The notes under the pieces are model-generated. The model was not told the DNA's origin. It saw only the letters and a list, made by a program, of their open reading frames with translations, and ran no database searches. DNA of 64,000 bases from a virus (lineage: Duplodnaviria > Caudoviricetes). Below are positions 2,810 through 62,631 of this stretch, one piece after another. Position numbers and translations under genes: made by a program. How positions within the stretch are numbered: position 1 is the stretch's first letter; each line of letters starts with the position of its first letter. The stretch covers positions 4,086 to 68,085 of the IMG/VR virus record IMGVR_UViG_3300032030_000073; one strand, 5' to 3'.

Positions 2810-2839
2810 ACTATAACTTCACTTTACCTCCGCTTTACC
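2810..2839 (-). promoter_or_regulatory. Late-promoter-like motif, copy 2 (before terS)
   Basis: Minus strand GGTAAAG-CGGA-GGTAAAG-TGAAGT-TATAGT. Confidence 0.6.
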
Positions 2840-2944
2840 TATTTTTCGGCGGAATCCGTGTGCAGACACCCACTTCGCCCATCGCCGCCCCGCCATTCCC
2901 CCATACCCAAGCCCCTAAACCCACCTTGCCACAGAAGCGCGAAA

Positions 2945-3022
2945 AACGCCCCTAGAATCGCTCCGCGCTGCTCGGACGTATCATTTGCCGTCCAGACCGC
3001 TCCGCGCGCTCCTAGGGGCGTT
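2945..3022. repeat. 11-bp inverted repeat enclosing a 10-bp direct repeat
   Basis: AACGCCCCTAG (2945-2955) / CTAGGGGCGTT (3012-3022); CGCTCCGCGC twice inside. Confidence 0.6.
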
Positions 3023-3485
3023 CTTGCCGCGTTCTAGCGAATCTACCGCCCGTTCCGCCATTCACATACACACGGGGGCCCCCACGAGGCTACTCGGCCC
3101 CGGCCCCGCGCCGACACCCACCTGCGCCCCCATACCCGGTACGGCGGGGGCCGATGACGGCGCGGCGGCGCATCCATCGATCTGCGCTCGCGGCTCCGTG
3201 CGTCGGTGTTACGCTGCTCTGCGCTCTGCGATTGCGAGGGATTGCGCTCTGCGCCTGCCCTCGATTGCGCCGCTCTGCGCGTGGTGGAGGGTATCTAACC
3301 CTCCGCAGATTGGCAGAAATCCCAAACAAACGCCCATGCCAGACCGCACAGCCTTGCCAACTCGCAACAATCTCGCAAAAATCCCGCAGCCAACCCGCCG
3401 AGGACGGCACGGACGATCGATTGTCCAACGCGTGGCATGGTCCATCCTGGACGTCAACCAGTCAAATCCGGCAGCCGATCTATCG

Positions 3486-3567
3486 CATTTGTGACAGATT
3501 TCAGAATTGTGTCACAAATGAAGGCGGGCGGATGCCGTTTGTGACAAAATCCGCGAATGTGTCACAA
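3486..3567. repeat. Two tandem dyad sites TTGTGACA-N13-TGTCACAA, 50 bp apart
   Basis: CATTTGTGACA 3486-3496 / TGTCACAAATG 3510-3520; TTGTGACA 3539-3546 / TGTCACAA 3560-3567; both spacers 13 nt. Confidence 0.85.
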
Positions 3568-3641
3568 CACGGGAGCGCGCGCAAACGCCACAAACGCGAG
3601 ACCCGGCCTTATCGCGGAAAAACGGCCTCAAATATGCCGTT

Positions 3642-3972
3642 GGGCAGGGCGGGCAGACTTCGGACATGGCGACCCTGCCCAGAAATGCGACAAAAATAAT
3701 ACGGGAATGTAAGAAAATGTGAGATATTGCACAAAAACAGCTCTGGGCAGGGTGGACATACCCCGCTATCACGCGCGTACGTGCGCGTATAAAGCCGCCG
3801 TGACGCATTATAGGCCATCGGCCAACTATAGATTTTCTCACGCGTACGCGTATATAGTAGGTCTGCCCAGTCTGTCCAATGGCTATATCGGTATAGTATT
3901 GGGTGATTTTTGGCCGATAATTGCAATTATATCGGACAGGGCAGGTCTGCCCACGGTCTGCCCACCCTGTCC
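3642..3972. repeat. Iteron-like CTGCCC/GGGCAG cluster with palindromes (candidate ori or pac)
   Basis: 8 copies at 3642, 3651, 3675, 3745, 3863, 3939, 3947 and 3958, plus CTGTCC variants; palindromes ACGCGTACGCGT and ATAATTGCAATTAT (3917-3930). Confidence 0.6.
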
Positions 3973-4355
3973 AGATTTTGGGCGTTTGGCGATTTTGTGT
4001 GCGAAGAGCGGCAATTTGATTTTTGGCAGCGAGAGCGACGGTTTTGGCCGCTCGCGCTGGTATGAGGCGGAGGGCGGAGCGCATCCCCTAATATACCCCT
4101 AATATGGTACGCGCGTGCGCGTGGGCGTAGCGCGTGCGCGACATAGGGATGAAGATAGTAAGAGGAAGGGTTGGGAATTGATCGGTGGTGGATTTGACGC
4201 CCTGGGCGCCGCCCCGCGCTGGATGACGGGGGAGCGGGGGCCGGGATCGGGCGCAGAGCGTGCGCGGCCCGGGCCGTTATAATGCGCTTGTTTATATTTG
4301 TATATTGGCGAAATTGGGAGAAATAAGAAAAGTGAAATTTTTTGCGGTTGCCCCC

Positions 4356-4384
4356 TTGCGCGGTGGCCGTGGATTTGATATACT
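4356..4384 (+). promoter_or_regulatory. Sigma70-type early promoter
   Basis: TTGCGC-17 nt-TATACT with extended TG and an AT-rich UP-like tract at 4321-4345. Confidence 0.8.
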
Positions 4385-4407
4385 GTTGGCGTTCCCCCGT
4401 GATGGGG

Positions 4408-4527
4408 CTTGCGAGCTAGAAGGCGCAAGGCATGAAGCGAACACAACCGATTTTAGCCGGTTGCACGTCGGGCGAAAGCCCCCTTCTAGCGTGCAACCGG
4501 CTAATCTGCTAAATGGAGCTAGAAGGC
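4408..4527 (+). ncRNA. Structured leader / antisense-RNA switch, copy 1
   Basis: Hairpin CTTGCG-AGCTAGAAGG-CGCAAG; 15-bp perfect stem 4453-4467/4490-4504 with inner GGGC-GAAA-GCCC hairpin and bulge CCTTCTAGC; GAGCTAGAAGGC repeated at the RBS. Confidence 0.68.
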
Positions 4528-4528
4528 C

Positions 4529-4882
4529 ATGGAAGCGAAGAACGAGACGGCGGGAGAGACCGCGACGGCGAGCGGGGCGCGGGTGCGCCTCGATGACATC
4601 AGGGCGGAGCAGATCGCATTTTTGCCCGATTATGTGATAGTTAGGGGGCAGCTGTACTATCGTATTGTATGGACATATGCGGGCGAGGGTGACAACCTGG
4701 AGCGCGTCGGCTGGGGTTGGATCAACCTCGCCGGGCTGCCGCAGTGGGCAACGCCCGGTTGTGGCTCTGCGCGTCGTGGTGCGTTTGTTTTGGGCGACGT
4801 GCACCGGCGTGGCGCGGCCAACACTCGCCACGGCTGGGATCTGCTGATTGATTCCATTTCGGAAGAGGGGAGGGCCGAATAA
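4529..4882 (+). CDS. Hypothetical early protein (N-terminal TAGETA motif)
   Basis: 117 aa, first ORF after the promoter; stop overlaps the next ATG. Confidence 0.65.
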   Translation: MEAKNETAGETATASGARVRLDDIRAEQIAFLPDYVIVRGQLYYRIVWTYAGEGDNLERVGWGWINLAGLPQWATPGCGSARRGAFVLGDVHRRGAANTRHGWDLLIDSISEEGRAE

Positions 4883-5616
4883 TGGCTAAGATCCTCTATT
4901 TCGAGGGCGCGGGAAGCGCGACGGCTGAAAGCGTGGCCGCTGGCGTCGGCAATTGCCGAATCCGCACGGCGTTTCACACGGCGGACGGGCGGCGGGTTTA
5001 CCTGGAAATCTGGGGGAACGAGCGAGGAAAGCACAATGCAAATGCCTGGAAGTGCAAAACGGACATAGCGTGCTATGTAGACTTTGCGCATTATATCACG
5101 GGCAATTCGGAAGATTGCAATCTGCACCGGCTCCCATTCGAGCGCAAGGACGTTTGCGCGATCCCTTACACTCCAGAGGGCATTTTGTCAATCGTCCGCA
5201 AATGCGGCGGCGATTTCAACGCCGTGCGCGTCCTGCCGGATCTGGCCGGGTATCGCGTCCACGCTGACGATTACGGCTATAATTACGGCGACGAGTTCGC
5301 GCCGGACTGGGCCGCGATCGAGAAACGCGAGAAAATCGCGGCAGAATGCGACAGGCTGGAATATGCCGCACGCAAACGCGACGCCGAGAAGGGCGCGCGC
5401 AAATGGGTAAACTCTCCGAGCGGGCGCATTTTCACGAATGGGAGCGTTTGCGTCGATTCTGACAGGGCCAATATTTTGCATTGGCACCTGTGCGGCGGCG
5501 AGTCTGCCGGAGACCACGAAATCGACATAAACGCGGGCGAAACCGCGGCTGAATGCGTGCGCGCGGCCATGTCCTGGAACGCGGCGACATACGGCGATTT
5601 TTCCGCCGTCGCCTGA
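4882..5616 (+). CDS. Hypothetical phage protein
   Basis: 244 aa, RBS GGAGGG, translationally coupled; starts MAKILYFEGAG...NCRIRTAF. Confidence 0.75.
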   Translation: MAKILYFEGAGSATAESVAAGVGNCRIRTAFHTADGRRVYLEIWGNERGKHNANAWKCKTDIACYVDFAHYITGNSEDCNLHRLPFERKDVCAIPYTPEGILSIVRKCGGDFNAVRVLPDLAGYRVHADDYGYNYGDEFAPDWAAIEKREKIAAECDRLEYAARKRDAEKGARKWVNSPSGRIFTNGSVCVDSDRANILHWHLCGGESAGDHEIDINAGETAAECVRAAMSWNAATYGDFSAVA

Positions 5617-5712
5617 CGCCGTGCGCCGTGCCGGACGCGTCCGCTCCATGAGGCGGGCGGGCGCGCTCCGGCGGGCGAAACAATCATCAATCAGAGAGAA
5701 GGAGTTTTTATC

Positions 5713-5919
5713 ATGGCCAAAAAATTCATTTTGGATATTTATAGTGGCGAAAGCTACGACAAGAAAAAGCATTTCCCAAAGGTCTGCTTTTGGTCTGATG
5801 ATCGTTGCAGATACTGGGGCTGGATTTATGGCGCGAACGGGGAAATAGAAGGCGATTTTTCGGCAGAATCAATGCAGATCGCAGAAAAGCGGCTTGGCGT
5901 AAAGTTTTCGAAGGGCTGA
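5713..5919 (+). CDS. Hypothetical protein
   Basis: 68 aa, RBS AAGGAG. Confidence 0.7.
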   Translation: MAKKFILDIYSGESYDKKKHFPKVCFWSDDRCRYWGWIYGANGEIEGDFSAESMQIAEKRLGVKFSKG

Positions 5920-5922
5920 ACA

Positions 5923-6024
5923 ATGTACGAGAAACTTGAAGCCGTAATTGTGCTGGCGTGGCTTGCGTGGCCGTTCGTGTGGATGGCCGTGGACTTCTTC
6001 CGCGAGGAATGCCGCAGACGCTAA
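5923..6024 (+). CDS. Small membrane peptide (33 aa)
   Basis: MYEKLEAVIVLAWLAWPFVWMAVDFFREECRRR; one hydrophobic helix; below the ORF-track cutoff. Confidence 0.45.
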   Translation: MYEKLEAVIVLAWLAWPFVWMAVDFFREECRRR

Positions 6025-6052
6025 AATCAACCCCAAAGAAAGGAAACAAACC

Positions 6053-6313
6053 ATGAAACAGGAATCAATGAACCTCGAATCTCAGGCGAGCTGTGACTAC
6101 GCCGAGAGGATTGCGCGAATTACGCCGGAGCGACTTGGCACGATACGGACGGCCCAGGCCGACAGGTCGGCGCGCTTCCACGCCGCGCGGCGGGTGCTGG
6201 AGAAGCTCAAGGCGTGGCGGACGGATTACGCCATTTATCCGCTTGAACGGCTGGAGGAAGTCGCGGAGCGTGCGCGGGAAGTCGCGGACGCGAAGTCTAA
6301 AAAGAGCGTATAA
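6053..6313 (+). CDS. Hypothetical protein
   Basis: 86 aa from ATG 6053 after AAAGGA RBS. Confidence 0.6.
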   Translation: MKQESMNLESQASCDYAERIARITPERLGTIRTAQADRSARFHAARRVLEKLKAWRTDYAIYPLERLEEVAERAREVADAKSKKSV

Positions 6314-6538: not shown

Positions 6539-6639
6539 ATTAGCCGAAACGCCGGATGCGTCCGGCGTCTGCGCAGGGGCGGCAACCCGCGCACCGACGA
6601 GGCAAGCCAAACAAACAACCAACCGAAAGGAAAAAGAAG

Positions 6640-7146
6640 ATGAACGAAGAAACCACCAACGAAACCCGCACGACAATCTGCCACCCTGCGCCGTCCGGCA
6701 AGGGGAGCGCGTTGCGCTTCACGCTCCACCCCGCCCACGGCAACGTGTCCGGCTGTGTCATGTTCGAGATTGCAAAGCAGAAAACAGCCGTTTCTGTGAC
6801 AGGCGAAACGCCCATGCCCGTGTTCGACTGGGACAACGCGATTGTAATGAAACTCTGCGTGAGCGACCTTGCGCAAATGCTCATGGTCTTTCGCGGGTAT
6901 CAGGAATCAATAGCCGACGGTAAGGGACTGTTCCACCGCACCGCCACGGCGAACGCTGTAATCAAATTTTCGCACGTGATCGAGCCGCGTCCCGGCTATC
7001 TGTTCAGCGTCAGCAAAAAACCGCTTGACGGCAAGTTGACGGATGCGTTTTTCGTGTTCCGCCCCGAGGAGGCGTATTGGTTTTCTAGGGCCCTCGAGGG
7101 CGCAATGTCTGCGCTCGTGTTCGGCGTGCCGTCTGTCAGGGCATAA
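6640..7146 (+). CDS. Whirly-like ssDNA-binding protein
   Basis: 168 aa; FDWDNAIVMKLCVSDLAQML and GLFHRT...VIKF resemble the Whirly-type signature. Confidence 0.5.
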   Translation: MNEETTNETRTTICHPAPSGKGSALRFTLHPAHGNVSGCVMFEIAKQKTAVSVTGETPMPVFDWDNAIVMKLCVSDLAQMLMVFRGYQESIADGKGLFHRTATANAVIKFSHVIEPRPGYLFSVSKKPLDGKLTDAFFVFRPEEAYWFSRALEGAMSALVFGVPSVRA

Positions 7147-10036: not shown

Positions 10037-10065
10037 TAGACAAACGGCGGCGGGCGTGGTATAAT
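10037..10065 (+). promoter_or_regulatory. Sigma70-type promoter
   Basis: TAGACA-17 nt-TATAAT with extended TG. Confidence 0.8.
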
Positions 10066-10080
10066 GCCCGCCGCTTTTTT
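10047..10080 (+). terminator. Intrinsic terminator overlapping the promoter
   Basis: GCGGCGGGC/GCCCGCCGC 9-bp stem followed by T6; the loop is GTGGTATAAT. Confidence 0.75.
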
Positions 10081-10101: not shown

Positions 10102-10413
10102 ATGAAATCCCAAAAGCCGAAGCTGACCCCGGAGGAATTGAGCCGCATCCGATCTGAGGCGGGACGGAGAGGCGCGCAGGTCACGCGCGAGCGCGGGCAC
10201 TTCCGGGGCGGACGCCCGAAGGGATCGCCAAACAAGGATCCGGGCGTCCCATCGCGGACGCTGACCGTGCGCCAGTCCGACTACAACGTTTTCGTGCGCT
10301 GCGCGAACGCCGCCGACAAGCCCATTGTCTCGTTCATGCACGACGTGGCGGAAAGTCTGAAGAAGAAGAACCCCGCGATCTTCGCGCCGGACGCGCAGAC
10401 GGTGAGGATGTGA
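10102..10413 (+). CDS. Putative ribbon-helix-helix DNA-binding protein with basic GRP-rich N-terminus
   Basis: GGRPKGSPNK followed by beta-strand RTLTVR and two helices (SDYNVFVRCA, IVSFMHDVAESL). Confidence 0.5.
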   Translation: MKSQKPKLTPEELSRIRSEAGRRGAQVTRERGHFRGGRPKGSPNKDPGVPSRTLTVRQSDYNVFVRCANAADKPIVSFMHDVAESLKKKNPAIFAPDAQTVRM

Positions 10414-10437: not shown

Positions 10438-10466
10438 TTGACCCGCGCGGCGGGGCGTGGTACAAT
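10438..10466 (+). promoter_or_regulatory. Sigma70-type promoter
   Basis: TTGACC-17 nt-TACAAT with extended TG. Confidence 0.82.
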
Positions 10467-10485
10467 GTACGCCGTTTTCGGACAA

Positions 10486-10620
10486 CAGGAAGTAGAACGC
10501 CTGCCGAGAACCGAATCGCGGAATCCCTAAACCACGATTGCCCGCCCGAACGGGTCTGTGCGTCCGCGCACACGTTCTACCCCGTTCGGCGCGGGTTTTA
10601 TCATGCGAATGGAAGTAGAA
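10486..10620 (+). ncRNA. Structured leader / antisense-RNA switch, copy 2
   Basis: Hairpin CAGG-AAGTAGAACG-CCTG; stem CCGAACGGGT/ACCCGTTCGG (10546-10555/10579-10588) with inner TGTGCG-TCCG-CGCACA hairpin and CGTTCTAC; GGAAGTAGAAC repeated before ATG 10624. Confidence 0.68.
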
Positions 10621-10623
10621 CCC

Positions 10624-10962
10624 ATGAGCAACAGAGAAAAGACGGCGGGAGAGACCGCAAATGCAAGCGCGGCGGGTGCCGCGAAGTTCACAGGAACCGG
10701 CTACATCGCGCGGATCGGCATCGACCGGGAAGGCAACTACTGGCTGGCGGACGACGGTAAGGGCATGCTTTCGAGGGAGCTTGTCAATCAAGATGGGACG
10801 CACGAAATAACGCCAGACATCTGCAAATGTCTGTTTTCGTCGCCGTTCGAAGCGTTGCGTGCCGCTTTCAACACGCGAAATGACTGCTTGATGAACATGT
10901 TCCCGAGGGTCGTGGCAGTTCGGATTGAGGCTACCGTCGTCAAGGAGGTGCGCTATGTCTAA
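10624..10962 (+). CDS. Hypothetical protein (TAGETA N-terminus; paralog of next ORF)
   Basis: 112 aa from ATG 10624. Confidence 0.65.
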   Translation: MSNREKTAGETANASAAGAAKFTGTGYIARIGIDREGNYWLADDGKGMLSRELVNQDGTHEITPDICKCLFSSPFEALRAAFNTRNDCLMNMFPRVVAVRIEATVVKEVRYV

Positions 10963-11371
10963 GGTCGCGAAGGACAGAGAGGCGCGCGCGGCGGGTGCCG
11001 CACACAACAGGTTCACCGAGGACGGCGACCTCATCTACAGGCCGACGGCGTATCCGTTCGAGGTAGTCGAAGGCTCCGGCTACGTCGTGCAGACGCGGTT
11101 GTTCACGGATGAGGCAGGCGTAATCAATACGTCATTCCTCACGGAGGACGGCGGCGAGGCGCTTTTCTCCGATCAAGTACGAATATTCGACGACGCGAAA
11201 AGCGCGGCGAAGGCCGCCGCGAAGGTCAAGGACTACCCGGAGGAGCAGGAGGACGGGAACTTCTACCCGCGCGTCCTGAAGGTGCGGCTGTCGTGGATCG
11301 TGGAGGGCGTGGCGTTCGAGAGCGTCGTGCGCGACATCGAGGGCGGCGCGAAGGTAAAGGGGGTGGCGTGA
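10955..11371 (+). CDS. Hypothetical protein (paralog of previous ORF)
   Basis: 138 aa, RBS GGAGGTG. Confidence 0.7.
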   Translation: MSKVAKDREARAAGAAHNRFTEDGDLIYRPTAYPFEVVEGSGYVVQTRLFTDEAGVINTSFLTEDGGEALFSDQVRIFDDAKSAAKAAAKVKDYPEEQEDGNFYPRVLKVRLSWIVEGVAFESVVRDIEGGAKVKGVA

Positions 11372-12270
11372 TGAACGACATCGTATGCTACCCCGGCAAC
11401 GCGCAGGTTCAGGTCAAATTCGACGGCGAGACCGTCTGGCTTACGCAAAGGCAAATGGCAGAGTTGTTCGGATGCGATACCGACAACATTGGTCTACATC
11501 TGAAAAACATCTACAATGACGGAGAAATTGACAAGAACTCAACTACCGAGGAATCCTCGGTAGTTCAAACCGAGGGCCAGCGCACGGTCACGCGGACTGT
11601 GACGCACTACAATCTCGACGCGATAATCTCCGTGGGCTACCGCGTCAACTCCAAGCGCGGCGTCCAGTTCCGGCAGTGGGCGACGAAGGTTCTGAAGGAG
11701 CGGCTTTTGCAGAACTACGTGCCGAAGTCCGCCGCCGCGCAGTCGCGCCCCTACGGCTACCACCTTCCGGCCAATGCGCAGGAGACCGTGCGGCGCGTCC
11801 TCGCGGACAACATCAACCGCGTACTGTCCGAGAACGGCGTGGAGGGCGCGGAGTCCGTGTTCGTCTGGTCGAGCGTGGCGCGGGAGTGGTTGCGCGGCAC
11901 GTGCATATCCGTCCACGCCGTCCAGACGATGGCGCGCGACGGCAATCTGGACTTCGTGCTGCCTCAGAAGGAGCGGTTCCCGACGTGGGACAAGAAACTG
12001 CGCGGGCGCGGCGTGTTCTGCGTGGGATCCCGCGTCGCGCGTGAGCGCATCCAATCCGGGCTGCACGTCTATGAGACTTACATCATCGGGCGCGACAGCG
12101 ACGGGCGCGTTGGGTGCCTGCGGTTCGAGACGCGCCCGGCGGTGGCGGCGGTTTCGTCTGTTCCAAAGGACGCCCCCGCGAAGATCCCGAAGCGCGTCAC
12201 GGAGTTCACGGCTCGGCTCGGCAGGGCGCGCGCCGCGCAGGTCGGATTCCTTCGCGGTTCGGACGTGTAG
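11371..12270 (+). CDS. RhuM-family DNA-binding domain fused to an unknown C-terminal domain (antirepressor-like)
   Basis: ETVWLTQRQMAELF, HLKNIY, YNLDAIISVGYRVNSKRGVQFRQWAT are RhuM-family motifs; 299 aa. Confidence 0.85.
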   Translation: MNDIVCYPGNAQVQVKFDGETVWLTQRQMAELFGCDTDNIGLHLKNIYNDGEIDKNSTTEESSVVQTEGQRTVTRTVTHYNLDAIISVGYRVNSKRGVQFRQWATKVLKERLLQNYVPKSAAAQSRPYGYHLPANAQETVRRVLADNINRVLSENGVEGAESVFVWSSVAREWLRGTCISVHAVQTMARDGNLDFVLPQKERFPTWDKKLRGRGVFCVGSRVARERIQSGLHVYETYIIGRDSDGRVGCLRFETRPAVAAVSSVPKDAPAKIPKRVTEFTARLGRARAAQVGFLRGSDV

Positions 12271-12919: not shown

Positions 12920-13267
12920 TTACTTTGTCGCTTCGTTGAACTTCGAGATTGAGGCTAAGAGGTTGTTGATCGAAATCGTGGCGCGGTCTGCGCTTGTCTT
13001 CAGGTCGGCGATGCGCTTGTTCACGGAGCTCGTCATTTGCTGTTCCTCCGCAACAAATGTTGTCGGCAGCCCAAGCACCCAGTCCGCTGAAACGTGGAAG
13101 TGAGAGCAGACGTTGAACACGAATTCCAGCGACGGCTTGCGTTCGCCACGCATATACAGATCAACGGTCTGCGGCGTCATTCCGAGCAACCTTCCAAATT
13201 CAAAGTTTGAAAGGTCGTTTTGGAGCGTTTTGATACGCCCGATAACATTTGATAAGTTTTTTAACAT
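12920..13267 (-). CDS. XRE-family (CI-like) phage repressor
   Basis: LSNFEFGRLLGMTPQTVDLYMRGERKPSLE HTH and HFHVSADWVLG; divergent from a Cro-like gene. Confidence 0.88.
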   Translation of the reverse strand: MLKNLSNVIGRIKTLQNDLSNFEFGRLLGMTPQTVDLYMRGERKPSLEFVFNVCSHFHVSADWVLGLPTTFVAEEQQMTSSVNKRIADLKTSADRATISINNLLASISKFNEATK

Positions 13268-13273
13268 TTGCTA

Positions 13274-13302
13274 TTGCCTCCGCTAACAATTGTTGGTATA
13301 CT
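13274..13302 (+). promoter_or_regulatory. PR-like promoter with palindromic operator in the spacer
   Basis: TTGCCT-17 nt-TATACT; AACAATTGTT palindrome at 13285-13294. Confidence 0.75.
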
Positions 13303-15084: not shown

Positions 15085-15486
15085 ATGGAACACATGAGCA
15101 AGTACGCCCGCAAGGTTGCCGCGCGCCGAGAGGAATCTGCAACCCGCGACCGCACCCTTGCGGCAATCGACTTCGCGCTCCGTCTGACGGAGGGCCGGGT
15201 GGTTGTCAAGCCGAAGGCCAACAAGCCCAAGCAGCCGCCGCCGGAACCGCGCGGGGCGATTGCAGACCTCCACGGGCTGCCGGAACAATGCTCCATGCTC
15301 CTGCGCAACGCGGCATCGCAGCTCCGCACCGCGCTGAAACTCGCCTACGAAATCCAGGATGAGGCCAAGAAGGGGCGACAGGCGGGGGAGGCTTACGCGG
15401 TGGTTGGCATCATCGGCCAACTGCCCGACAAGATCGAATATGCGGCGACCCGCGTTGCCGCGATACCGAACAAGAGGAACGGTTGA
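15085..15486 (+). CDS. Hypothetical protein
   Basis: 133 aa. Confidence 0.55.
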   Translation: MEHMSKYARKVAARREESATRDRTLAAIDFALRLTEGRVVVKPKANKPKQPPPEPRGAIADLHGLPEQCSMLLRNAASQLRTALKLAYEIQDEAKKGRQAGEAYAVVGIIGQLPDKIEYAATRVAAIPNKRNG

Positions 15487-25193: not shown

Positions 25194-25629
25194 AATCTGC
25201 GTCTATAGCAACTGGGACGGAAATGAAGTCGCAGATCGCGCAAAGCGTTTGAAGAACGACATCAAGGCGTTTGCGAAGATGCGGAATTGCGCGTTCTGGA
25301 CGGAGGGTTCCGACAAGGACTCAACTCATTGCATCGTCGTCCGCAGTTTCATGGGAGACATCGAGAGCGGTCTATACATCGAGAACGCGCGGATAGAAAA
25401 AACGGTCTTTGGATGGTGCAACGAAGTGGCGGCATTGTGCAAGGACGATCCGGACGAGGGCGACGGAGAGTTTGAGCACAAGACGATGAGGGTTGAAATC
25501 TGCGACTTGGAGAACGATGGCGGGTTGCAGGTAATCTGCTATGACAAGAAAGGAGAGGACATGGGAATCCGCGTCCTGCCGATTTACAAGCCACTGGAGA
25601 TTGAAAGCGAGGCCGAAGATGGCGAATAA
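25177..25629 (+). CDS. Hypothetical protein
   Basis: 150 aa, RBS GGAGG. Confidence 0.7.
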   Translation: MELTTEICVYSNWDGNEVADRAKRLKNDIKAFAKMRNCAFWTEGSDKDSTHCIVVRSFMGDIESGLYIENARIEKTVFGWCNEVAALCKDDPDEGDGEFEHKTMRVEICDLENDGGLQVICYDKKGEDMGIRVLPIYKPLEIESEAEDGE

Positions 25630-26356
25630 AAAATACGAGTTCACAGGCGAGACCCGATTAGTCGAAGGCCGAACCCTCCACAGGATTCGCGCGATCATCA
25701 CTTTTTCGCATGTAGAAGTTGGCGAAATCGGCGGGTGGATTGAGACTGAAAGCAATCTATCGGTGTCCGGCGACGCGAGGGTGTACGGCAACGCTTGGGT
25801 GCACGGCGACGCGAGGGTGTACGGCAACGCTTGGGTGCACGGCGACGCGAGGGTGTACGGCTACGCTTGGGTGCACGGCGACGCGAGGGTGTACGGCGAC
25901 GCGAGGGTGTACGGCAACGCTTGGGTGTCCGGCGACGCTTGGGTGTCCGGCGACGCTTGGGTGCACGGCAACGCGAAGGTATACGGAAACGCGAGGGTGT
26001 CCGGCGACGCTTGGGTGTCCGGCGACGCTTGGGTGTCCGGCGACGCGAGGGTGCACGGCGACGCGAGGGTGTACGGCGACGCGAGGGTGTACGGCAATGC
26101 GGATTACATCGTCGTAAAGAACTGCTGGAGTTCGATGCGATGGTTCACATACACGCGGTCAAACAGGAAGTGGAAAGTCGGGTGCTTCTATGGGACAGGC
26201 GATGAGCTTATTAAAAAAGCATACGCCGACAGCGAGAAGTCTGGGAAGTGCTACGAGGCGATTGTGCGGGCGGTCGAGGCGATTGAAGCGGCGACGAATG
26301 AGAAGGAGGCCGAAGGTGGGGAACAGGAGGAGGGCGAAAATGCGACGCGCAACTGA
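25619..26356 (+). CDS. Hexapeptide-repeat (left-handed beta-helix) phage protein
   Basis: KKYEFT...TLHRIRA...GEIGGWIE N-terminus, 18 x G[DN]A[RW]V[YHS], C-terminal VGCFYGT. Confidence 0.85.
   Translation: MANKKYEFTGETRLVEGRTLHRIRAIITFSHVEVGEIGGWIETESNLSVSGDARVYGNAWVHGDARVYGNAWVHGDARVYGYAWVHGDARVYGDARVYGNAWVSGDAWVSGDAWVHGNAKVYGNARVSGDAWVSGDAWVSGDARVHGDARVYGDARVYGNADYIVVKNCWSSMRWFTYTRSNRKWKVGCFYGTGDELIKKAYADSEKSGKCYEAIVRAVEAIEAATNEKEAEGGEQEEGENATRN
25769..26092 (+). repeat. 18 tandem 18-bp coding repeats
   Basis: GGCGACGCGAGGGTGTAC / GGCAACGCTTGGGTGCAC-type units. Confidence 0.92.
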
Positions 26357-32435: not shown

Positions 32436-32953
32436 ACAAATCCTATAACATGAACATCGACACCGGCGAGAAGACATGGCTCACCCCGCCGCACATCATC
32501 GAAGCCCTCGGCCCGTTCGACCTCGACCCGTGCTGTCCGCCGACGATGCCGTGGCGCACTGCGACGCGCATGGTGCATTGGCCGGAGGACGGCCTGAATG
32601 TGGACTGGACAGGCAAGCGCGTTTGGTGCAATCCGCCGTACGGGCGCGACGCCGTGCCGTTCCTCCGCAAGATGGCGGAAAACAAGACGGGGGGTGGGAT
32701 TTTGCTTATATTTGCGCGGACTGACACCTCCGCGTGGCAGGACTATATATTCCCGTACGCAAGCGGCGTTCTGTTCCTTCGCGGGAGGCTGCGCTTCCAC
32801 AGGCCCGACGGAACGCAAGGAGAGACGGCTACGGCGCCCTCTGCGCTCGTCGCGTACTTGGATCGGGACTTCATGCGTCTGCGCGAGAGCGGGCTTAGAG
32901 GCGCGTTTTTGCGCGTCTCGAGTTATGCTTTAGGCGGCAGTATCGCGAAGTAA
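32432..32953 (+). CDS. Phage DNA N6-adenine methyltransferase (phage Dam-like)
   Basis: WLTPP, FDLDPC, VWCNPPYG, ARTDT.W, LFLRGRLRF. Confidence 0.9.
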   Translation: MNKSYNMNIDTGEKTWLTPPHIIEALGPFDLDPCCPPTMPWRTATRMVHWPEDGLNVDWTGKRVWCNPPYGRDAVPFLRKMAENKTGGGILLIFARTDTSAWQDYIFPYASGVLFLRGRLRFHRPDGTQGETATAPSALVAYLDRDFMRLRESGLRGAFLRVSSYALGGSIAK

Positions 32954-34131
32954 GCCTCGCCCTCCGCGCGCAGCTCCACGCCGTTGTAGTTCCGCGCGCG
33001 CACGTCGTCCGTGTTGCCGACTATCGCCGTCAGCGCGTTCGCGTCGTGGTGAACGGCCTCGAACATCGTGATGAACGTATGACGCCCCGCGTTCTTCGTC
33101 AGCTTCGCCTTCGCCGCCGACGCCGCGTCAACGAGGTGCCGGCGGAACTGCTTGTTCCTCGTGGTGGCTCCGTCCATGAAGTCGAACGCGCGCATCCACG
33201 CGACGGCCTGCTCGGGGATGGTGAACGCCCTCGGCTTGATCCCCTTGCTGACGCCCTTCGGGATTCCAACGCGGATCGTGCGTTCGTCTATGCTTATCCT
33301 GATTGCGTGCTCGCCGAGTGGAGCGCGGTCGATTTCGCTCTGGCGCATCCCGCAGAAGAACGACAGGATGGCGCATGCGAGGTCCGCGCGTCCGCACGGA
33401 GAGTCGCGCCTGTTCCAAAGCTCGCCGAACAGCTTCTTCACGTCCTCCGCCTTCATGTACTCCGGCTGCCGGTACGGAATGACAATCTTCTTCATCCCGT
33501 CCAGCGGGTTCTCGCGAAGGTACTTCTGCTCGACGTTCGCGCACCACGAGACGAACGCTTTGATGTTGCCGAGGTGGTTGTTGTACGTCACCCACGAGCC
33601 GATGTCGCCCTGCCTGTAGAAGCCGTCCACAAGGTACTTCTTGACTTCCGGCGCGTTGATGTCGGACACGGGCCTCGCCTCTCCGAACGCGCTCACGAAC
33701 GCTCCAACGCGCAGGCGCACGTCCTTCTTGTACGGCTCGCTCTTGTCCTGCACGGCCTTCGCGTAGCCGGCATACGCCTCGCCAATCGTGACGGACGGCG
33801 TCTCCTCCCTTTCAGGCTCGCCCGCGAGCACGATCTTCGCGCACTCCACGAGCGTCATGCTACGCCCGCTCTGCGCGATCATGTCAATAGCCTGCTTGGC
33901 GTCCATCGCCTGGTATCGCGTCAGCACGGCCCCGGCCTCGCCGCTCTGGTCAAGCGTCTTGTAGAACTCGGCTATCTTCTGCTTCAGCCTCTTCTCGTTC
34001 GTCGCGGACTTGCGCACCGGCTTGCCCGTGAAAGGGTCTGTTCCGAAATACGCCTCGTAGATGGCGTACCCACCCTTCTGGACCCTCGCCTTGACCGTGG
34101 CAAGAGCCTCGTTTTTCGGCAAAAAACTCAT
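32923..34131 (-). CDS. int: Tyrosine integrase
   Basis: FFCGMRQSE (R), K in the beta hairpin, KNAGRHTF (His-to-Asn variant of HxxR), RNY (Tyr); N-terminal arm and core-binding regions; adjacent attP. Confidence 0.9.
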   Translation of the reverse strand: MSFLPKNEALATVKARVQKGGYAIYEAYFGTDPFTGKPVRKSATNEKRLKQKIAEFYKTLDQSGEAGAVLTRYQAMDAKQAIDMIAQSGRSMTLVECAKIVLAGEPEREETPSVTIGEAYAGYAKAVQDKSEPYKKDVRLRVGAFVSAFGEARPVSDINAPEVKKYLVDGFYRQGDIGSWVTYNNHLGNIKAFVSWCANVEQKYLRENPLDGMKKIVIPYRQPEYMKAEDVKKLFGELWNRRDSPCGRADLACAILSFFCGMRQSEIDRAPLGEHAIRISIDERTIRVGIPKGVSKGIKPRAFTIPEQAVAWMRAFDFMDGATTRNKQFRRHLVDAASAAKAKLTKNAGRHTFITMFEAVHHDANALTAIVGNTDDVRARNYNGVELRAEGEAYFAILPPKA

Positions 34132-34229
34132 TTTCAACTCCTGTTTTTTGCACCGATTCCTTTGCGAAAAACTTACGAGAAACCGAAGTTTACTCGCAAG
34201 AAACCTAATGCTTGTTTTTCATGCCGCAT

Positions 34230-34533: not shown

Positions 34534-37500
34534 TCACTTCCGGCGCGAACGGCGAATCTTGTCCAGCAGGATCGACTTCTGCCGTTCGATCTCGTTTGTC
34601 AGCGATGCCGTTGGCGTGCCGCCCTTCTTCTCGATGTCCTTCGCCTTGCGCTCAAGCCGGTTGACGGCCTTGATGCGCGCGTCGATGTCGCCGCGCACGG
34701 AATCGGCCATGAGCGGGCTTTCAGACTTCATGCCGTCAAGCAGCTCCTTCCTTTCAGACTGCGTGAGTTCCGCGTCCTTGCTGATGGCGTCGTATGCCCT
34801 CTTTTCTTCCAAGAAGCGGTTGACGGCGTTGTCGTAGGGCTTTCGGTCGTATGTCGAGCCTCCAGCGCCGAGAATCGACAGCGGAACCGTGACAAGCGAT
34901 TTGCCGACGCCGTTCTGCACGATCTGGTCCTTCACGTCATCGAACGTTAGCGGGACGAGCATTTCCCAAACCATATTGCCGACGCCGTACTCTTCGCCCA
35001 CGTAGTCCTTGCCTTCCCAGAGAGCGACAATGGTAGACGCCGACGGGGACAGCTTGCCTTGCAGATAGCGCCCGATCGCACCCATGGTCGTCGGACCGTT
35101 GAAGTCTCCAAACTTCATCACGCGTCCCGTGCTAGAGCGCTTGGACTTCGTTGCCAGCTGATGCACAAGCCTGTTGAACGTCGATTCGCCGCCCGTAAGG
35201 TCTATCGTAGTGTTGCCGATCTTCGGAGAGGCTATCATCATCATCTTCTCGAACCAGTCGGCCTGCGAGAAGTCGTACTTGTCGTCGTCGTCCGAAAACA
35301 GCCATTTGAGGAGCGAGCCGATGGCAAGCATCGCGACGGTCGATCTCAGATGCTCGCGAAGACCGATCTTCGCCGCCGTCTTGCGCTCGTCGTTCGACAC
35401 CTTATCGAACGAACCGTCGGCGTTCTTTATCCCCTTCGCGACGAGCGGATGCCAAATGTCGTATCCGACGGCGGACTGGACGCGGGAAATGGCGAGCTGC
35501 GGCGCCCAGAAGATGTCGTTCACCCACGCCTTCTGCAACGCCTGGCGGCGCTCCTTCGAGAGCGCGGCGGAGCCGTTCCAGATGTTGATCATGTCGGCTA
35601 TCATCTTCTTCTGCCACGGCGTCGCGCCACCTGGAATGCCGTTTACGATGGACGTGTAGAGGTCTGCGGACATGGCGTTGAGGTACGTCAGGTAGTGACG
35701 TTCGCTCTTCAGCATGAACTCGCCGAAGAGCGGGATGTCCGTGATGGCGTACTCCTTGCCGAAAATCTTCACTTTGTTGCGCTCCATGCCGTGGAACATC
35801 TCGACGTCGCGGTCGCTCTGCGCGTCCACTTCGCGGAGGTGAAGTCCGAACTTCTTGACGGCCTCCTGTACGGTCGGGTCGGACAGAATCTCCGTGTTCA
35901 CGTCAAGTAGGCTCGCCTCGGAGCGCGCCGCCGTCCACGCCTTGCCGAACGACCGCGCCGCCTTGACGGGATGTCCGAGCGTCATGCGCGCGGCCTGCCG
36001 AAGGACGGCGGAGAAGTCCATCGTGGCACGAAGCGCGCGCTGGGCGGTCGTGACGAAGCGCAGGAAGTTGACGCCCTTGCGGACGAACGTCGGCACGGTG
36101 GCGTTCTCCGCCTCAAGGCGAAGTTCCGCCAGCTTCTGCCGTCCGCGCTTCATCTGCTCGCCAAGCTCGTCGTACCGCTTCTGCTGGTCTTTCGTCATAG
36201 GCGGCTGCGGCTTCTTCTGCGGACGAATGTCGCCCGTCGCGATGCGTTCCGCGAGACGCGCCAGGGCCTTTTCGCGGCTTGCCATCTTCCGGGCGTTCAG
36301 CGCCTCGATCTCCTCCGGCGTCATGCCGAACGCGTACTTAGCGTTCTTCAGTTCGCGGATGGATTCGCGCACCTGCCTGATGCGGTCGCGCAGCGTCTCT
36401 ATCGTCTCCGAGGTGACGCCCGGACGCTGCGGACGCTTCGAGAAGTCGCCGGACTGCGCACGGGCGAAGTCCTCCATCGCGCGTTCGAGCTCTTTTGCGA
36501 GGAGTTTTTCCGTGAGCGCGATGCGCTGCGCGTCGGTCATCTCGCGCGTCGTTCCGAAAAGTTCGTCGTACTGCTTCTGCAACTCGTCCTTCTCCGCGCG
36601 GAGTTCGCGGACTCGGATGTCGTCAACCACCTTCCGCTTCGGGACTGGTATGCGCTCGCCGGTCTCAATGGCGCGTTTCAGATCAGCGATCCTGTTTTCA
36701 AGGTTCCGTTTTATCGTGTCGAGCGTGCTTTTCAGCCGCCGCTCGTCACGTCCGGCGTCGGGGACTTCCGCCTTTCGGTCGCGCACCCTCTTCGCCCACT
36801 CGCGCTCGTCCTGCGTGGGCTCGTCGCGGATGGGGCCGGTCGCGGGCGGCATCGTGTTCGTCTCGTCCATCCAGTCGATCTGACGCTTCGACCTCGAAAT
36901 GTTGCGGAGGCTGTTCATCAGCCGCTGCGCGTCATAGCGGGACTGCTTGTAGTTGTGCCCGAAGCCCGTCAGCGCGTCACGCACCTGGTTCGCGTCCACG
37001 CCGTCCATGAACGGCGAGATGTCCCGGACAATCGCGTCTATCACCTCTTCCTCGGTGATCTCCGGGTTGAGGAAGCAGTGGTACTCGCCGATCTGGCGGA
37101 GCCACTTGCCCCACGACGGGTACTGCTGGTCGGAAAGCCCGATGAGCGTGCCGCCCGTCTCGGCCGCGCCGACCTCGATCTGCGTGAGCGCGTCCTGGTA
37201 GTTCTGCGCGACCTTGCGCGCCACGTCGCCCACCTTGCGCTCCGTGGCCTTGCGCACCTTCAAGCCGTTCTTCGTCTGGTCGATGACCTTCTTGGAGAGC
37301 GGGATAAGCCGTTCCGTCGCAAGGCGCAGACCTTCCTCGTCAAGCCCCTCGAAGAGCTTTGCGAGGTCGCGTATCCGCGCGTTCATTTCTGGCGTAATCT
37401 TGTCAATGCCGCCAAGGGTCTGCGCGATCCTGCCCGCGATTCCCGCATACGAATAGTCGTGCGCGGCGATGAGCGCGCGGTTCGAGCGCAGCGCGCGGCC

Positions 37501-40500
37501 CTGCTCGGACGCGCCCATCATCGCCGCCTTGCCGGCCTCCGCCATCTGCGCCTTGGCCTGCGCCAGCTTCGCCGACACCTGCCTCAGCTCGTCCCGCAGC
37601 TCCGGCGTCTTGTTCATGTCGTCCTCCGGGATCGCCGCAAGTTCGGCGCGGCGTCTCTCCAGGTCGTTCACGGCGGCCTGCCGCTGGCGGAACAGCACAT
37701 TCAGCGCGACGTTCTCGTAGTCGCGCGTCGGGCGCGGGAACTTCGCCACGGCGCGGGAGAGCTTCGCCATGTACGTGGGGTTGGAGAGCAACGTCTCCAC
37801 CTGCCTCCACATGTCCGCGTCCGTCTTCCTGACGTGCGCGGGTGGCTCCATGCCCGCCGCCTTCAGCGCGGTGGCGATCTCGTCGTTCGTCATGCCGTAC
37901 ACCTCGCGCATGATCTTCTCGGTGGGCGTCTTGTCCTCGCTTGCGGCATACTCCGCCTCGGCGGGCGTAAGCTCCGGCGTGTCGAAGCTGACAAGAGATT
38001 CGCCGAATGGGCCGCGAGGGTCTTCAATGTCGCGTTCGATAGCTTTGTACGCATCGTTTATCTTCTGCGCGACGCGATTAAGCCGTTCAAGGTCTTCTCC
38101 CTTAAAGTTGCCCGACTCTACAAGGTTCTTCAACGCCTCCGCGAACGGCCCGGCCTCTCCTGGGCCGATCGCATACGGATCGAAGTGCATGGAAATGCTG
38201 GCTTCGCCGGATTCGATGGAGTCGAGGATTTCCAGCAGGTCGCCGTTTGTGTACCAGTCAATTTCCTCACGGTCCTCACCAATTCCGTTCCGTTTAAGTT
38301 CTTTCAGCTGGTCGCGCAGTTCCTTCGCGTCCTCGCGATAATACGTCTCTCGTTTTTTGTAATAGTCCACATTGAGCGGATCTTCTTCGGCTAATCTTTT
38401 TTGCTCCCTCGCCTTTGCGTTATCCTCATTGATGCGCCGCTTGAGGTCACGCGCCTCAGATTCCGACGGCGTGTCGTCGGCACCCGCTTTGATATTCCGC
38501 TTCGCAGTCTTGCGCAGGGCGGCGATGTCGTTCAGCATTTGTTCATCATGCGTGGAAATCCACCACAGAGAATGGTCAAGGCGTTCTGGAACCGACGAAT
38601 AATCGGCGCTTAGTTCCGGCGTGTCGAATTGCAGGACGCCGTCGGTCCACTTGTGGTCCACGCGGATGTGCTCGTCCGAGAACGCGACGTAGTTCCACCC
38701 CGCCTTGTCGCCGTCCTTAAGAGTTTTGCCATACGAGTCGACCGGGTACTTCACACCGTCGATGCCGGCTCGCGCAAGGAACTCGGAAGCGGCTTTGGGT
38801 CTATTTGACGTTCTCGGGAAGAACTGGCATGTCAATTTGTATAGGTCTTCGCCTGTCTTGACATTGATGTTTATGTAGCCACCGTTCAACGTAACCGGCT
38901 GATAATAATGTCCGGTTCCATCGTCCGCCCACAGAAGAATCTTACCGTCTTCGTCCGTCCTTCCATATTCATCTTCACGTATTACCCCCTCTTCTTTGGC
39001 TTTGTCTATGATACGATTCACAAGTTCTTGCTCTACCGGCTCGTACCACTTCAAGAGGTGGCTCTCGTCGCCCGGCGCCCGGTTCGTGAAGAACGTTTGC
39101 TCGTAGAGGTGATTGTTTGTACCATACCCTTTAGGGATTATCGCATCATGCCAAGTCGACTTCTCAAGAATGTCTTTAACAACTTCCAAGCCTTCGGCAA
39201 ACTTGTCGTGAGCAAGGCTTTTATGCTTATCAATGGCTTCGGAGACTTCTTCGATAGCCTTTTGTCTTGATGTCTGATTCCACCCGTGCTTTCTCAACTT
39301 CTCACGTGCAGAATCAATCGCCCATTTGGGAAATCCATTTTCGGGCATATCATAACCAGGGTCTTGGGCCAATCCAGATTTGCGAAGACTATCATCATGC
39401 GCATACCCCTCCGCGACGCCGCGCTCTGTGCTCCCGTAGAGCCCCCAGCCGTAGACCTGGCTGCCCTCGCCCGTGCCGATGTACTTAACGCTCGGCCCGT
39501 CGTCCACGCCGCCCTGGCGCGAGCGGTTCGCGTAGTCCGCCGCCGTGCCGGTGTAGATGCCGGGCGTGTCGAAGTCCACGCCGCCCTGCAACGCCCGGAC
39601 GCGCTCCGCGAACTGCGCCTTGAGTTCGGCGCGCTCCGCGTCCGTCTTCGCCGCCCTGTACGCCGCGTCGATGCGCTGGAGGGCGGGGTCGCTGCGCATG
39701 GCCTCCCTTGTCTGCTCCGCCACTCCGCGCCGATATGCGTTGCGCTCCTCTCCCGTGAGCGTGTCCTTCATGCCCGTGGCGGAAATGTCGCCCATCGGCA
39801 CGGTGCGCGTCTCGACCTTCTCCGGCGCGTAGCGGTTCGCGCCCGGCGTGCGCACCTGCACGTCCGCCGTGCCGTCTGCGTTCGCCTTCAGGAACGTGAC
39901 GCGCTGGCCGTCCTTCGCGCCCTTCAGGAACACGCGGTCGCCGCGCTTGAACGCGGGCTTTTGGGGTTTTTCGCCCGTAAAAACGGGCGACACTGGACGC
40001 GTCGCCGTAGGTTTTGCGGCTGGCGCGGCGTTTTCCGCCGACTCCCCACCCTGTGGCGCGCTTGCGGGCGCTTCGTCCCACGAATCGTCGTACTCGCCGA
40101 TCTCGTCAAAAGCCTGATTGGTGGCGCGCCTGACGGCCTCCTCGTATGCCGCGACCTCGCGCTGACGTTGACGGGCAATCTCGCTTCCGTTCGCGTAGTA
40201 TTTCCCAGTCTTGGGGTTTATCACCGAGTGGAACGGCGCTTTCTTCTTGAGTTCGTCGGCGATCTTCTTTGCCTCGGCCATCTTGGCTTCCCAGTCGGCC
40301 TTTGAAGTCGCCTTCGTGAATGTCTTTGGGAACTTCACGTCCGGCAGTTCGACTTCGTACTCCCTGCCGTTCTGGACGATTCGTACAGATTCGCCGTCTC
40401 GCGTCGTTTTCACCACCTGTGGCGCGTCCGCGCTCTTCGGTGGCGTAGTCGTGCCATCCGCGCGCGGCGCGCTTGCAAGGGCGGCTTTGGCGGGTTTCCG

Positions 40501-61905: not shown

Positions 61906-62631
61906 CTAAACCATGCTGCCCATGTCGAGGGCGAATCCGCCGCCGGCGTTCGCAGCGGGGCCGCCGCACTGCGAGCGCTGGCGGGCCTCCGAAAGCGCGT
62001 TGGAGTACGCGACGCCGCGCTGGCGCGCCTGCTCCGCATCCGTCCACGCCCTGCCGGTCATCGAAAAGAGCCGCGCAAGCGCGCCGTCCACGAGCGCGTC
62101 GCCGTACCGTTGCAGGAACTCCCTCGGCGCGCGCTCCTCGCCGATGTGCGGAATCTCCACGGCCTCCACCCACACCATCGGCGGGCGTGTACGCGGAGCG
62201 TCGTCCGTCGGCGCGTTCCCCACAGGAAGCGTGCCGACGTTCGGCCTCTGCTGAACGAGGTTCGGGTCGCTCCTGCCGACGAAGAAATCGTGGTGCGACG
62301 GATGAGGAAAAACGAGCCTTGGCGGGTGGCCTTCTAGCCGCCAGCCGCGCACGTCGTGGCGGACGCCGCCGCAGTCGCTCACGACCCGCGTCACGCAGTC
62401 GATCTCGCCCGACAGCACGGGCGCGACGGCGAACGCCACGCCTAGCGGAAGTGCGACCCGCCGCCACGTCCGCAACGCTGCGGAGCGGCGGCAGAAGTCG
62501 CGGTAGGTCGCCTGGAGCGTCTTGCGGATCAGAACGGAATCGCAGCCGGGGAGCAGGTACACCATGTCCTCGGCGAGCGACGGCACGGAATCGAACTCCG
62601 GCCTCTCCCATTCTGTCGTGAAGTCGCCCAT
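61906..62631 (-). CDS. Head-tail adaptor (tail tubular protein A-like)
   Basis: LPGCDSVLIRKTLQATYRDFCRRS...YGDALVDGALARLFSMTGRAWTD. Confidence 0.75.
   Translation of the reverse strand: MGDFTTEWERPEFDSVPSLAEDMVYLLPGCDSVLIRKTLQATYRDFCRRSAALRTWRRVALPLGVAFAVAPVLSGEIDCVTRVVSDCGGVRHDVRGWRLEGHPPRLVFPHPSHHDFFVGRSDPNLVQQRPNVGTLPVGNAPTDDAPRTRPPMVWVEAVEIPHIGEERAPREFLQRYGDALVDGALARLFSMTGRAWTDAEQARQRGVAYSNALSEARQRSQCGGPAANAGGGFALDMGSMV

Follow-up and report, generated by a model that had tools for sequence, protein, structure and literature searches.

A candidate single-site, c4/CI-like antisense RNA switch in the leaders of two operons of a ruminant-gut phage

How is the large rightward gene block of this phage controlled? 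The DNA analysed here (the window, 64 kb) belongs to a contig of 68,085 nt whose 128-nt end repeat indicates a circular assembly of ~67,957 bp with 61% G+C. Its rightward genes extend from 4529 to ~32,950 and its leftward genes across the remaining genome, the divergent blocks being separated by a non-coding, repeat-rich stretch of 1.7 kb (2811-4528). In the last part of this stretch, a sequence-only reading had recognized a target, an antisense bulge and a second target over a ribosome-binding site (RBS), and had proposed an RNA-only immunity switch gating a whole early host-takeover operon. To our knowledge, the textbook examples of phage immunity based on c4/CI-type RNA are confined to P1/P7, P4 and their enterobacterial relatives. 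The locus raises the question of whether a switch of this kind is present and, if so, what it might control.

The elements of the leader (copy 1) and the first ORF are as follows:

4356-4384, + strand: promoter, with a -35 box TTGCGC (4356-4361), a 17-nt spacer and an extended -10 box TGaTATACT (4376-4384; TATACT at 4379-4384)
4395-4407, + strand: 5' hairpin H0 (CCCC, 5-nt loop, GGGG), near the predicted transcript start
4408-4429, + strand: target hairpin a, with a 6-bp stem and the 10-nt loop AGCTAGAAGG at 4414-4423
4430-4452, + strand: A/C-rich single-stranded spacer of the GCGAACA type, almost invariant among relatives
4453-4504, + strand: antisense module of ~52 nt, with a perfect 15-bp closing stem H2 (4453-4467 / 4490-4504)
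4470-4481, + strand: inner tetraloop hairpin H3 (GGGC-GAAA-GCCC)
4482-4490, + strand: unpaired antisense 9-mer CCTTCTAGC, whose last C doubles as the innermost pair of the 15-bp stem
4513-4531, + strand: RBS target c, with the second AGCTAGAAGG at 4517-4526, between the Shine-Dalgarno GGAG (4515-4518) and ATG 4529
4529-4882, + strand: first ORF predicted to be regulated (117 aa), its stop codon sharing bases with the ATG of the following ORF (4882-5616)

The proposed arrangement, with an antisense bulge between one target and a second target at the RBS, is real, and all the elements named in the earlier reading are present, with promoter coordinates slightly shifted. The promoter is preceded by an UP-like A/T-rich tract (~4320-4345), and its -35 box, spacing and TG-extended -10 box are kept across all copy-1 relatives. 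The three recognition elements, i.e., the unpaired bulge (hereafter the key) and the two target copies (the locks), are carried by one transcript within ~115 nt of a leader of ~140 nt, and the RBS copy of the 10-mer ends two bases ahead of the ATG. The isolated stem-loop is very stable (-34.8 kcal/mol, z = -5.9; whole leader, z = -2.4). At the RBS, AUGG (4513-4516) can form a weak 4-bp hairpin with CCAU (4527-4530) (-2.2 kcal/mol, z 0.36), which, on this folding prediction, might tentatively be taken to present target c as a loop; equivalent pairs are possible in two of the related leaders described below (L008 and L010). As for the spacer at 4430-4452, we would guess that it is a processing or chaperone site. 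Three other features of the copy-1 sequence were discarded: two mini-ORFs in the leader (ATG 4402 and ATG 4513), whose reading frames are not conserved; an extended complementarity between a and the bulge (13/15 in the window), which is lost in relatives and was attributed to chance; and a third occurrence of CCTTCTAGC at 62330, which lies in a coding region, is no part of a layout and was likewise considered fortuitous.

A triple of this kind is not rare by itself. In dinucleotide shuffles of the genome, at least one 9-mer arranged as direct copy, reverse complement and direct copy is found somewhere in 14.5% of cases, so that the window sequence alone is suggestive but not conclusive, and the case rests on geometry and on comparison. 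This figure would suit the idea that the arrangement is due to chance, or that a protein binds the 10-mers as an operator in RNA or DNA, and so would the identity of the a and c copies, which extends over up to 12-14 bases and is thus longer than the complementarity of the bulge. Geometry was assessed with a layout detector that required a direct repeat with its reverse complement in between, the latter lying unpaired within a helix of 8 bp or more, and a start codon adjoining the second copy. The detector recovered every known relative and, on both strands of the window, returned only two sites, namely copy 1 and a second element at 10467-10626, the existence of which had been implied by the wording of the earlier reading ("copy 1"). 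This second element has the same build as copy 1 and an unrelated sequence:

10438-10466, + strand: promoter (TTGACC, 17-nt spacer, TG-extended TACAAT), kept in the two related leaders L088 and L089
10474-10511, + strand: target hairpin a, whose 10-nt loop (10490-10499) carries GTAGAACG
10540-10595, + strand: antisense module with a 14-15-bp closing stem (10540-10554 / 10581-10595)
10557-10572, + strand: inner tetraloop hairpin, followed by the unpaired 8-mer CGTTCTAC at 10573-10580
10609-10626, + strand: RBS target c, with GGAAGTAGAAC at 10611-10621 and ATG 10624
10624-12270, + strand: operon of a 112-aa ORF, a ~148-aa ORF and a 325-aa RhuM-family protein (11293-12270)

The copy-2 module has a folding energy of -33.8 kcal/mol (z -4.4) and is followed by TTTTAT (10596-10601), a terminator-like arrangement that also appears in the list of terminator-like sites. 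A covariance model built from copy-1 relatives scores copy 2 at only 6.3 bits, which is no detection; the two elements thus represent two separate sequence families with one common architecture.

In order to follow the evolution of the layout, the leaders of relatives were taken from the DNA upstream of the homologues of the 117-aa ORF, in assemblies and in IMG/VR; fifteen such homologues were found, with 61-87% identity. The full layout is kept in 10 distinct copy-1 leaders, each with its own key (the window, L001/L006, L004/L005, L007/L049, L009, L008, L010, L011, L013/L014 and L064), and in each of them the upstream loop, the bulge and the RBS site change together. The target core is, for instance, CTAGAAGG in the window, CTAAGAGG in L064, TTCAGAGG in L013, TTCGAAGA in L011, TTAGAAC in L001 and TGACTC in L007, and in every copy-1 case the bulge contains its exact reverse complement. 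The 112-aa ORF behind copy 2 has three homologues, from which two leaders (L088 and L089) could be retrieved; together with the window they provide three further keys, with all three sites altered in step. In a matrix of each key against each target, the cognate Watson-Crick run was 6-10 nt for every leader, at both the upstream and the RBS sites, and was the maximum of its row; non-cognate runs were mostly of 2-5 nt, with the exception of the L008 key on the L004 target (6 nt). It should be noted that the key is of just 6 nt in L004, L007 and L009, rather little for a stable duplex unless a chaperone or a kissing geometry helps.

The helices were examined on an alignment fitted to the covariance model, comprising 12 copy-1 leader matches and one partial, opposite-strand match to the palindromic stem; a whole-leader alignment (MAFFT/RNAalifold) misaligned the helices and gave a weak result, and the model-based one was used instead. 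In this alignment, 97.4% of the cells are paired, vs 36-48% when the partners are slid by 1-3 columns, a comparison that leans towards structure given the way in which the alignment was made; the minimum-energy folds of the individual leaders, which are independent of it, give the same module. Pairs changed on both sides amount to 19/25 overall and to 12/13 in the closing stem H2, and none of 500 shuffles reached the observed values. H0 (helix 1) is paired in 97.9% of the cells, and the stem of hairpin a (helices 2-3) covaries as well, while its loop changes jointly with the bulge and the RBS target. The G-U pairs of the closing stem fit only an RNA of the + strand, and so speak against a palindrome in DNA or a transcript from the other strand.

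The joint changes of the three elements in the 13 leaders show, as far as sequence comparison can, that their complementarity is held by selection; on the same grounds, the fold can be regarded as well supported, and so can the three-way complementarity, the selection that maintains it and the position over the RBS. These observations bear directly on the protein-site and chance explanations. In all 13 leaders the reverse-complement copy changes with both direct copies, and it is always unpaired inside a covarying helix with G-U pairs, as would be expected for RNA-RNA pairing; moreover, the same geometry could not be attained 13 times by chance. Both explanations appear therefore extremely improbable.

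Complementarity and covariation would be equally expected if the pairing took place only in cis. According to this alternative, the leader is a switch in which the bulge pairs either with the upstream loop (gene on) or with the RBS copy (gene off); it could then be a co-transcriptional timer or sensor, with no free small RNA and no immunity. The presence of the three elements on one short transcript speaks in its favor, as does the fact that the upstream site is made first and is pre-organized in a loop. The pattern of variation points in another direction. Among five close leaders compared in pairs (L001, L006, L004, L007 and L009), identity is 91-98% for the scaffold, recognition sites and hairpin a excluded, vs 66-81% for the DNA of the ORFs. 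The recognition columns are only 29-86% identical between leaders with different keys and 100% identical between L001 and L006, which share one key. Variable columns are 15/21 among the recognition columns vs 13/112 among the others (Fisher p = 4e-8). Drift in a cis element fails to explain changes concentrated in key and locks on such a scaffold; furthermore, the two non-matching versions in this one genome and the 13 keys in 13 leaders resemble the outcome of a selection that needs encounters in trans, and pairing of the bulge with the RBS in cis would have to span a rigid 15-bp helix with a linker of just 12 nt. A frozen scaffold carrying a fast-changing but self-consistent key is our foremost reason for preferring action in trans, and we consider a purely intramolecular switch, the chief rival explanation, unlikely.

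The switch does not accompany the gene everywhere. In L002 (9800-10003) and L003 (6670-6876), where the first ORF is 61% identical, a like promoter is followed by a short, plain leader with one hairpin and neither key nor lock, which indicates that the switch is a module that can be gained or lost and is dispensable for that gene. Likewise, the copy-2 ORF is absent from three IMG/VR relatives, one of them a complete 67-kb genome, in which the detector finds copy 1 only. Pattern searches of viral contigs returned 67 stretches with the 5' hairpin, two of which were true members; a scan with a 14-nt spacer motif gave no member among the matches listed, and one with the inner hairpin of copy 2 gave no member.

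Can the element be assigned to a known family? The Rfam scan of the window gave no family at the gathering threshold. C4 (RF01695, gathering 45 bits) had no match at E up to 10 around copies 1 and 2, nor at E up to 5 in 11 relatives, and c4-a1b1 (RF03163, gathering 46.7 bits) had none in the two copies or in the 11 relatives, where no CI-type hit appeared either. With isrK (RF01394, gathering 50 bits), copy 1 gave nothing and copy 2 only 14.6 bits (E 1.7), which is at chance level and was rejected together with the RT-12 and miRNA matches of the permissive scans. In the same scan, the immI region of P1, used as positive control, scored 68.8 bits with C4, 51 bits with c4-a1b1 and 35 bits with isrK; reciprocally, the copy-1 model had no score on P1 immI. 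The earlier remark that the sequence is unrelated to the enterobacterial families is borne out by these searches.

A different picture emerges from the architecture. The annotated P1 record has the order promoter P1c4, a1/b1, the 77-nt c4, a2/b2 and icd, whose stop overlaps ant1; comparison with this record and with the Rfam consensus confirmed that the build of the leader parallels that of P1, as had been suggested. Both systems have a constitutive-type sigma70 promoter, an upstream hairpin target, an embedded antisense segment, a target at the RBS and a small ORF coupled to the next gene. Both also have a long closing stem around a tetraloop hairpin (UUCG-type in P1). In P1, a 4-bp hairpin displays a1 in its 8-nt loop, and here too the upstream target is shown in a hairpin loop; the complement of a1 within c4 is unpaired and directly precedes the 3' strand of the closing stem, the very place occupied by the key. 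The main difference is that P1 c4 has two recognition boxes (a' and b'), whereas the 13 leaders have one, the second inner hairpin with its 12-nt loop being missing. Each of them has at most one inner hairpin, and L010 has none, its key lying in the loop of a simple stem. The module and the leader are also shorter than in P1 (~52 vs 77 nt and ~140 vs ~240 nt, respectively).

The 5' end of c4 is matured by RNase P. The CCA-like tail of P1 c4 (CCACC) is absent after the closing stem in all the leaders, and the RNase P route of c4 and CI is therefore not indicated. The proteins regulated by P1 c4 are unrelated to those found behind the switches, and the hosts of P1 are enterobacteria, while those concerned here are ruminant-gut bacteria (~61% G+C). 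Taken together, the element is best placed among those that would work like c4/CI, and membership of the Rfam C4 clan cannot be demonstrated for it; judging from the sequences, its architecture is that of a one-site "mini-c4", with the antisense segment at the position of the a' box of P1 c4.

Other phage RNAs offer partial parallels. In the secondary immunity region (immI) of P22, the sar RNA is a small antisense RNA that blocks the translation of an anti-repressor; it is made from the other strand, with full complementarity to the target, unlike the present keys and locks, which lie on the same strand and pair through 6-10 nt between loops. The CI RNA of P4 is cut from a leader and pairs with one complementary site upstream and one downstream (PMC4825925). 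The one-key, two-lock logic of its seqA - CI/seqB - seqC arrangement, which was compared through that description and not by sequence, is the same as here; nevertheless CI, a member of the C4 family, causes premature termination of transcription, whereas the downstream lock of the present leaders is an RBS with no terminator after it. A third case is IsrK (STnc1160) of Gifsy-1 in Salmonella, whose short terminated form acts on the read-through mRNA; the locus precedes a small ORF to which an anti-repressor-like gene is coupled (PMC4825925). The effect of IsrK is to switch translation on, through the remodelling of a long-range helix, whereas the pairing considered here would cover the spacer between the Shine-Dalgarno sequence and the AUG.

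These precedents (PMC4825925) suggest a further alternative, in which the stem-loop is a leaky terminator and the resulting short RNA activates or terminates read-through transcripts instead of blocking ribosomes. A U-run does follow the stem in copy 2, L010 and L011, and the weak isrK match of copy 2 would point the same way, had it exceeded the chance level. On the other hand, copy 1 and the L001 group are without a convincing U-run, a duplex between the Shine-Dalgarno sequence and the AUG should hinder rather than help initiation, and no terminator was found downstream of the RBS target. This scenario seems to us decidedly improbable.

The reading that we regard as probable is that of a c4/CI-type antisense repressor of translation, embedded in the leader and targeting its own transcript, with a single recognition site and an immunity-like specificity. 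It would work as follows. A strong host-type promoter would produce the ~140-nt leader, in the middle of which the stable ~52-nt stem-loop would present the key, 8-10 unpaired bases that immediately precede the 3' strand of the closing stem. The key would pair with the two identical locks, one in the upstream hairpin loop and the other between the Shine-Dalgarno sequence and the start codon of the first ORF. As the latter target occupies the interval from GGAG to the AUG, 30S subunits should be kept out by a duplex at this lock, and the first ORF would be left untranslated; through the overlapping stop and start codons, and possibly through polarity, the following genes would be turned down as well. 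The stem-loop is expected to outlive the mRNA, being freed by cleavage or by stopping at the U-run of some versions; as such a U-run is present in some versions only, both ways of release are possible. Once freed, it would act in trans on new transcripts with the same key, including those of a superinfecting phage. The upstream lock might mask the key in the primary transcript or serve as a decoy setting a threshold, a helper role being another option; we know of no settled account of the function of this target copy, P1 included. That the leader represses, that a small RNA is set free and acts in trans, and what the upstream site does are inferred from the arrangement described above.

The key and its locks are hypervariable among related phages, and this genome carries two non-matching versions of them. 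It is proposed that this variability might give each switch a private, immunity-like specificity. A difference of specificity between related phages is known from the heteroimmunity of P1 and P7 (PMC12197685). In evolutionary terms, it is conceivable, although we hold it with more doubt than the mechanism itself, that a minimal one-key version of c4/CI, having arisen or diverged past recognition in phages other than the enterobacterial ones, serves superinfection immunity as a rapidly evolving RNA barcode.

What is new here is an uncatalogued, minimal one-box family from ruminant-gut temperate phages, with a clear record of the diversification of specificity; the principle itself is known. The comparative signal is unusually clean, consisting of 13 key/lock sets on two unrelated scaffolds. 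If the proposed reading is true, the c4/CI principle would be broader and simpler than the model systems suggest, new immunity specificities would arise through three coordinated changes on a frozen 140-nt scaffold, and a single phage could run two orthogonal switches on different operons. The 13 natural sets would then also constitute a panel of compact, orthogonal 52-nt translational repressors, and the upstream target copy would acquire a role that can be tested.

Which genes would such a switch control? The ORFs downstream of copy 1 have no Pfam, PHROG or ESM Atlas assignment, and the label "host-takeover" given to them in the sequence-only reading is not sustained, these ORFs being without recognizable function. 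Viral contigs searched with each of the two first ORFs singly gave no related loci, the profile of the 117-aa family had no match in species-representative genomes, and blastn of 4100-6100 against 50,697 phage records had none either. The claim that the whole operon is gated goes too far. The target spans the RBS of the first ORF alone, and a wider effect would depend on polarity or on coupled translation; the latter is made plausible by the overlap of stop and start codons at 4882, which is kept in relatives, so that repression could spread downstream. Behind copy 2, the order of the genes is the same in L089, and the RhuM-family protein (Pfam RhuM, 3e-21) has a weak match to the PHROG "anti-repressor Ant" (E 0.008). 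This end of the operon recalls the c4-icd-ant arrangement of P1, and one might, on thin sequence grounds, see in the protein an anti-repressor.

That the immunity is of RNA only, as had been claimed, is not borne out either, an XRE-type repressor gene and an integrase-like gene being present as well:

12930-13267, - strand: XRE-type repressor gene
32923-34137: integrase-like gene (PHROG integrase, 7e-20)

Together with the RecT-like, exonuclease, RecD-like helicase, primase and structural genes of the same genome, these suggest, at the level of gene content, a temperate tailed phage. A divergent promoter (13274-13302) faces the XRE gene and has a perfect palindrome, AACAATTGTT, between its -35 and -10 boxes; gene and promoter are likely to form a CI/Cro-type switch, separate from the RNA switches. 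No copy of this palindrome was found near the copy-1 promoter, which fits, if weakly, a constitutive promoter controlled post-transcriptionally. As to the provenance of the phage, the sequencing runs matching the window DNA are ruminant-gut metagenomes, no RNA run being among those listed, with a strong match only in one sheep-gut DNA run, which may be the source sample.

Some further features of the genome deserve mention. The stretch upstream of the copy-1 promoter (2811-4355) contains a 30-nt inverted repeat on TGTGACA (3489-3567), this repeat being present also in L001, copies of GGGCAGG/CTGCCCA (3641-3970) and short CTCTGCG/GATTGCG repeats (~3200-3290); its role may be that of an origin, a packaging region or an operator region. 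At 10037-10075, a consensus-like promoter (TAGACA, 17-nt spacer, TG-extended TATAAT) is interlaced with a terminator-like hairpin of 12 bp, which precedes a T-run and carries the -10 box in its loop, and hence the terminator of the long early operon overlaps the promoter of the ORF at 10102-10413. A near-threshold type II hammerhead ribozyme was detected in the copy-1 early operon at 6542-6612 (+ strand), before and over the start of the ORF at 6556-7146 (35.5 bits, the gathering score being 37; E 7e-6 for a search space of 251 nt). Its GAAAC and GUC core is present and its CUGANGA box reads CCGACGA (U to C); the homologous site in L001 (9290-9359) scores 30.9 bits. The relative L001 also carries a tRNA gene (15210-15280, 42.7 bits) beside leftward regulator genes, and none was found within the 64-kb window. 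The leftward structural block is headed by an ORF of 3638 aa (34534-45450, - strand) with no convincing Pfam or PHROG match, which could encode a giant virion protein. Lastly, the ORF at 25541-26356 (PHROG 7964, function unknown, 1e-83) contains ~18 tandem units of 18 nt, i.e., 6-residue repeats, at 25690-26157.
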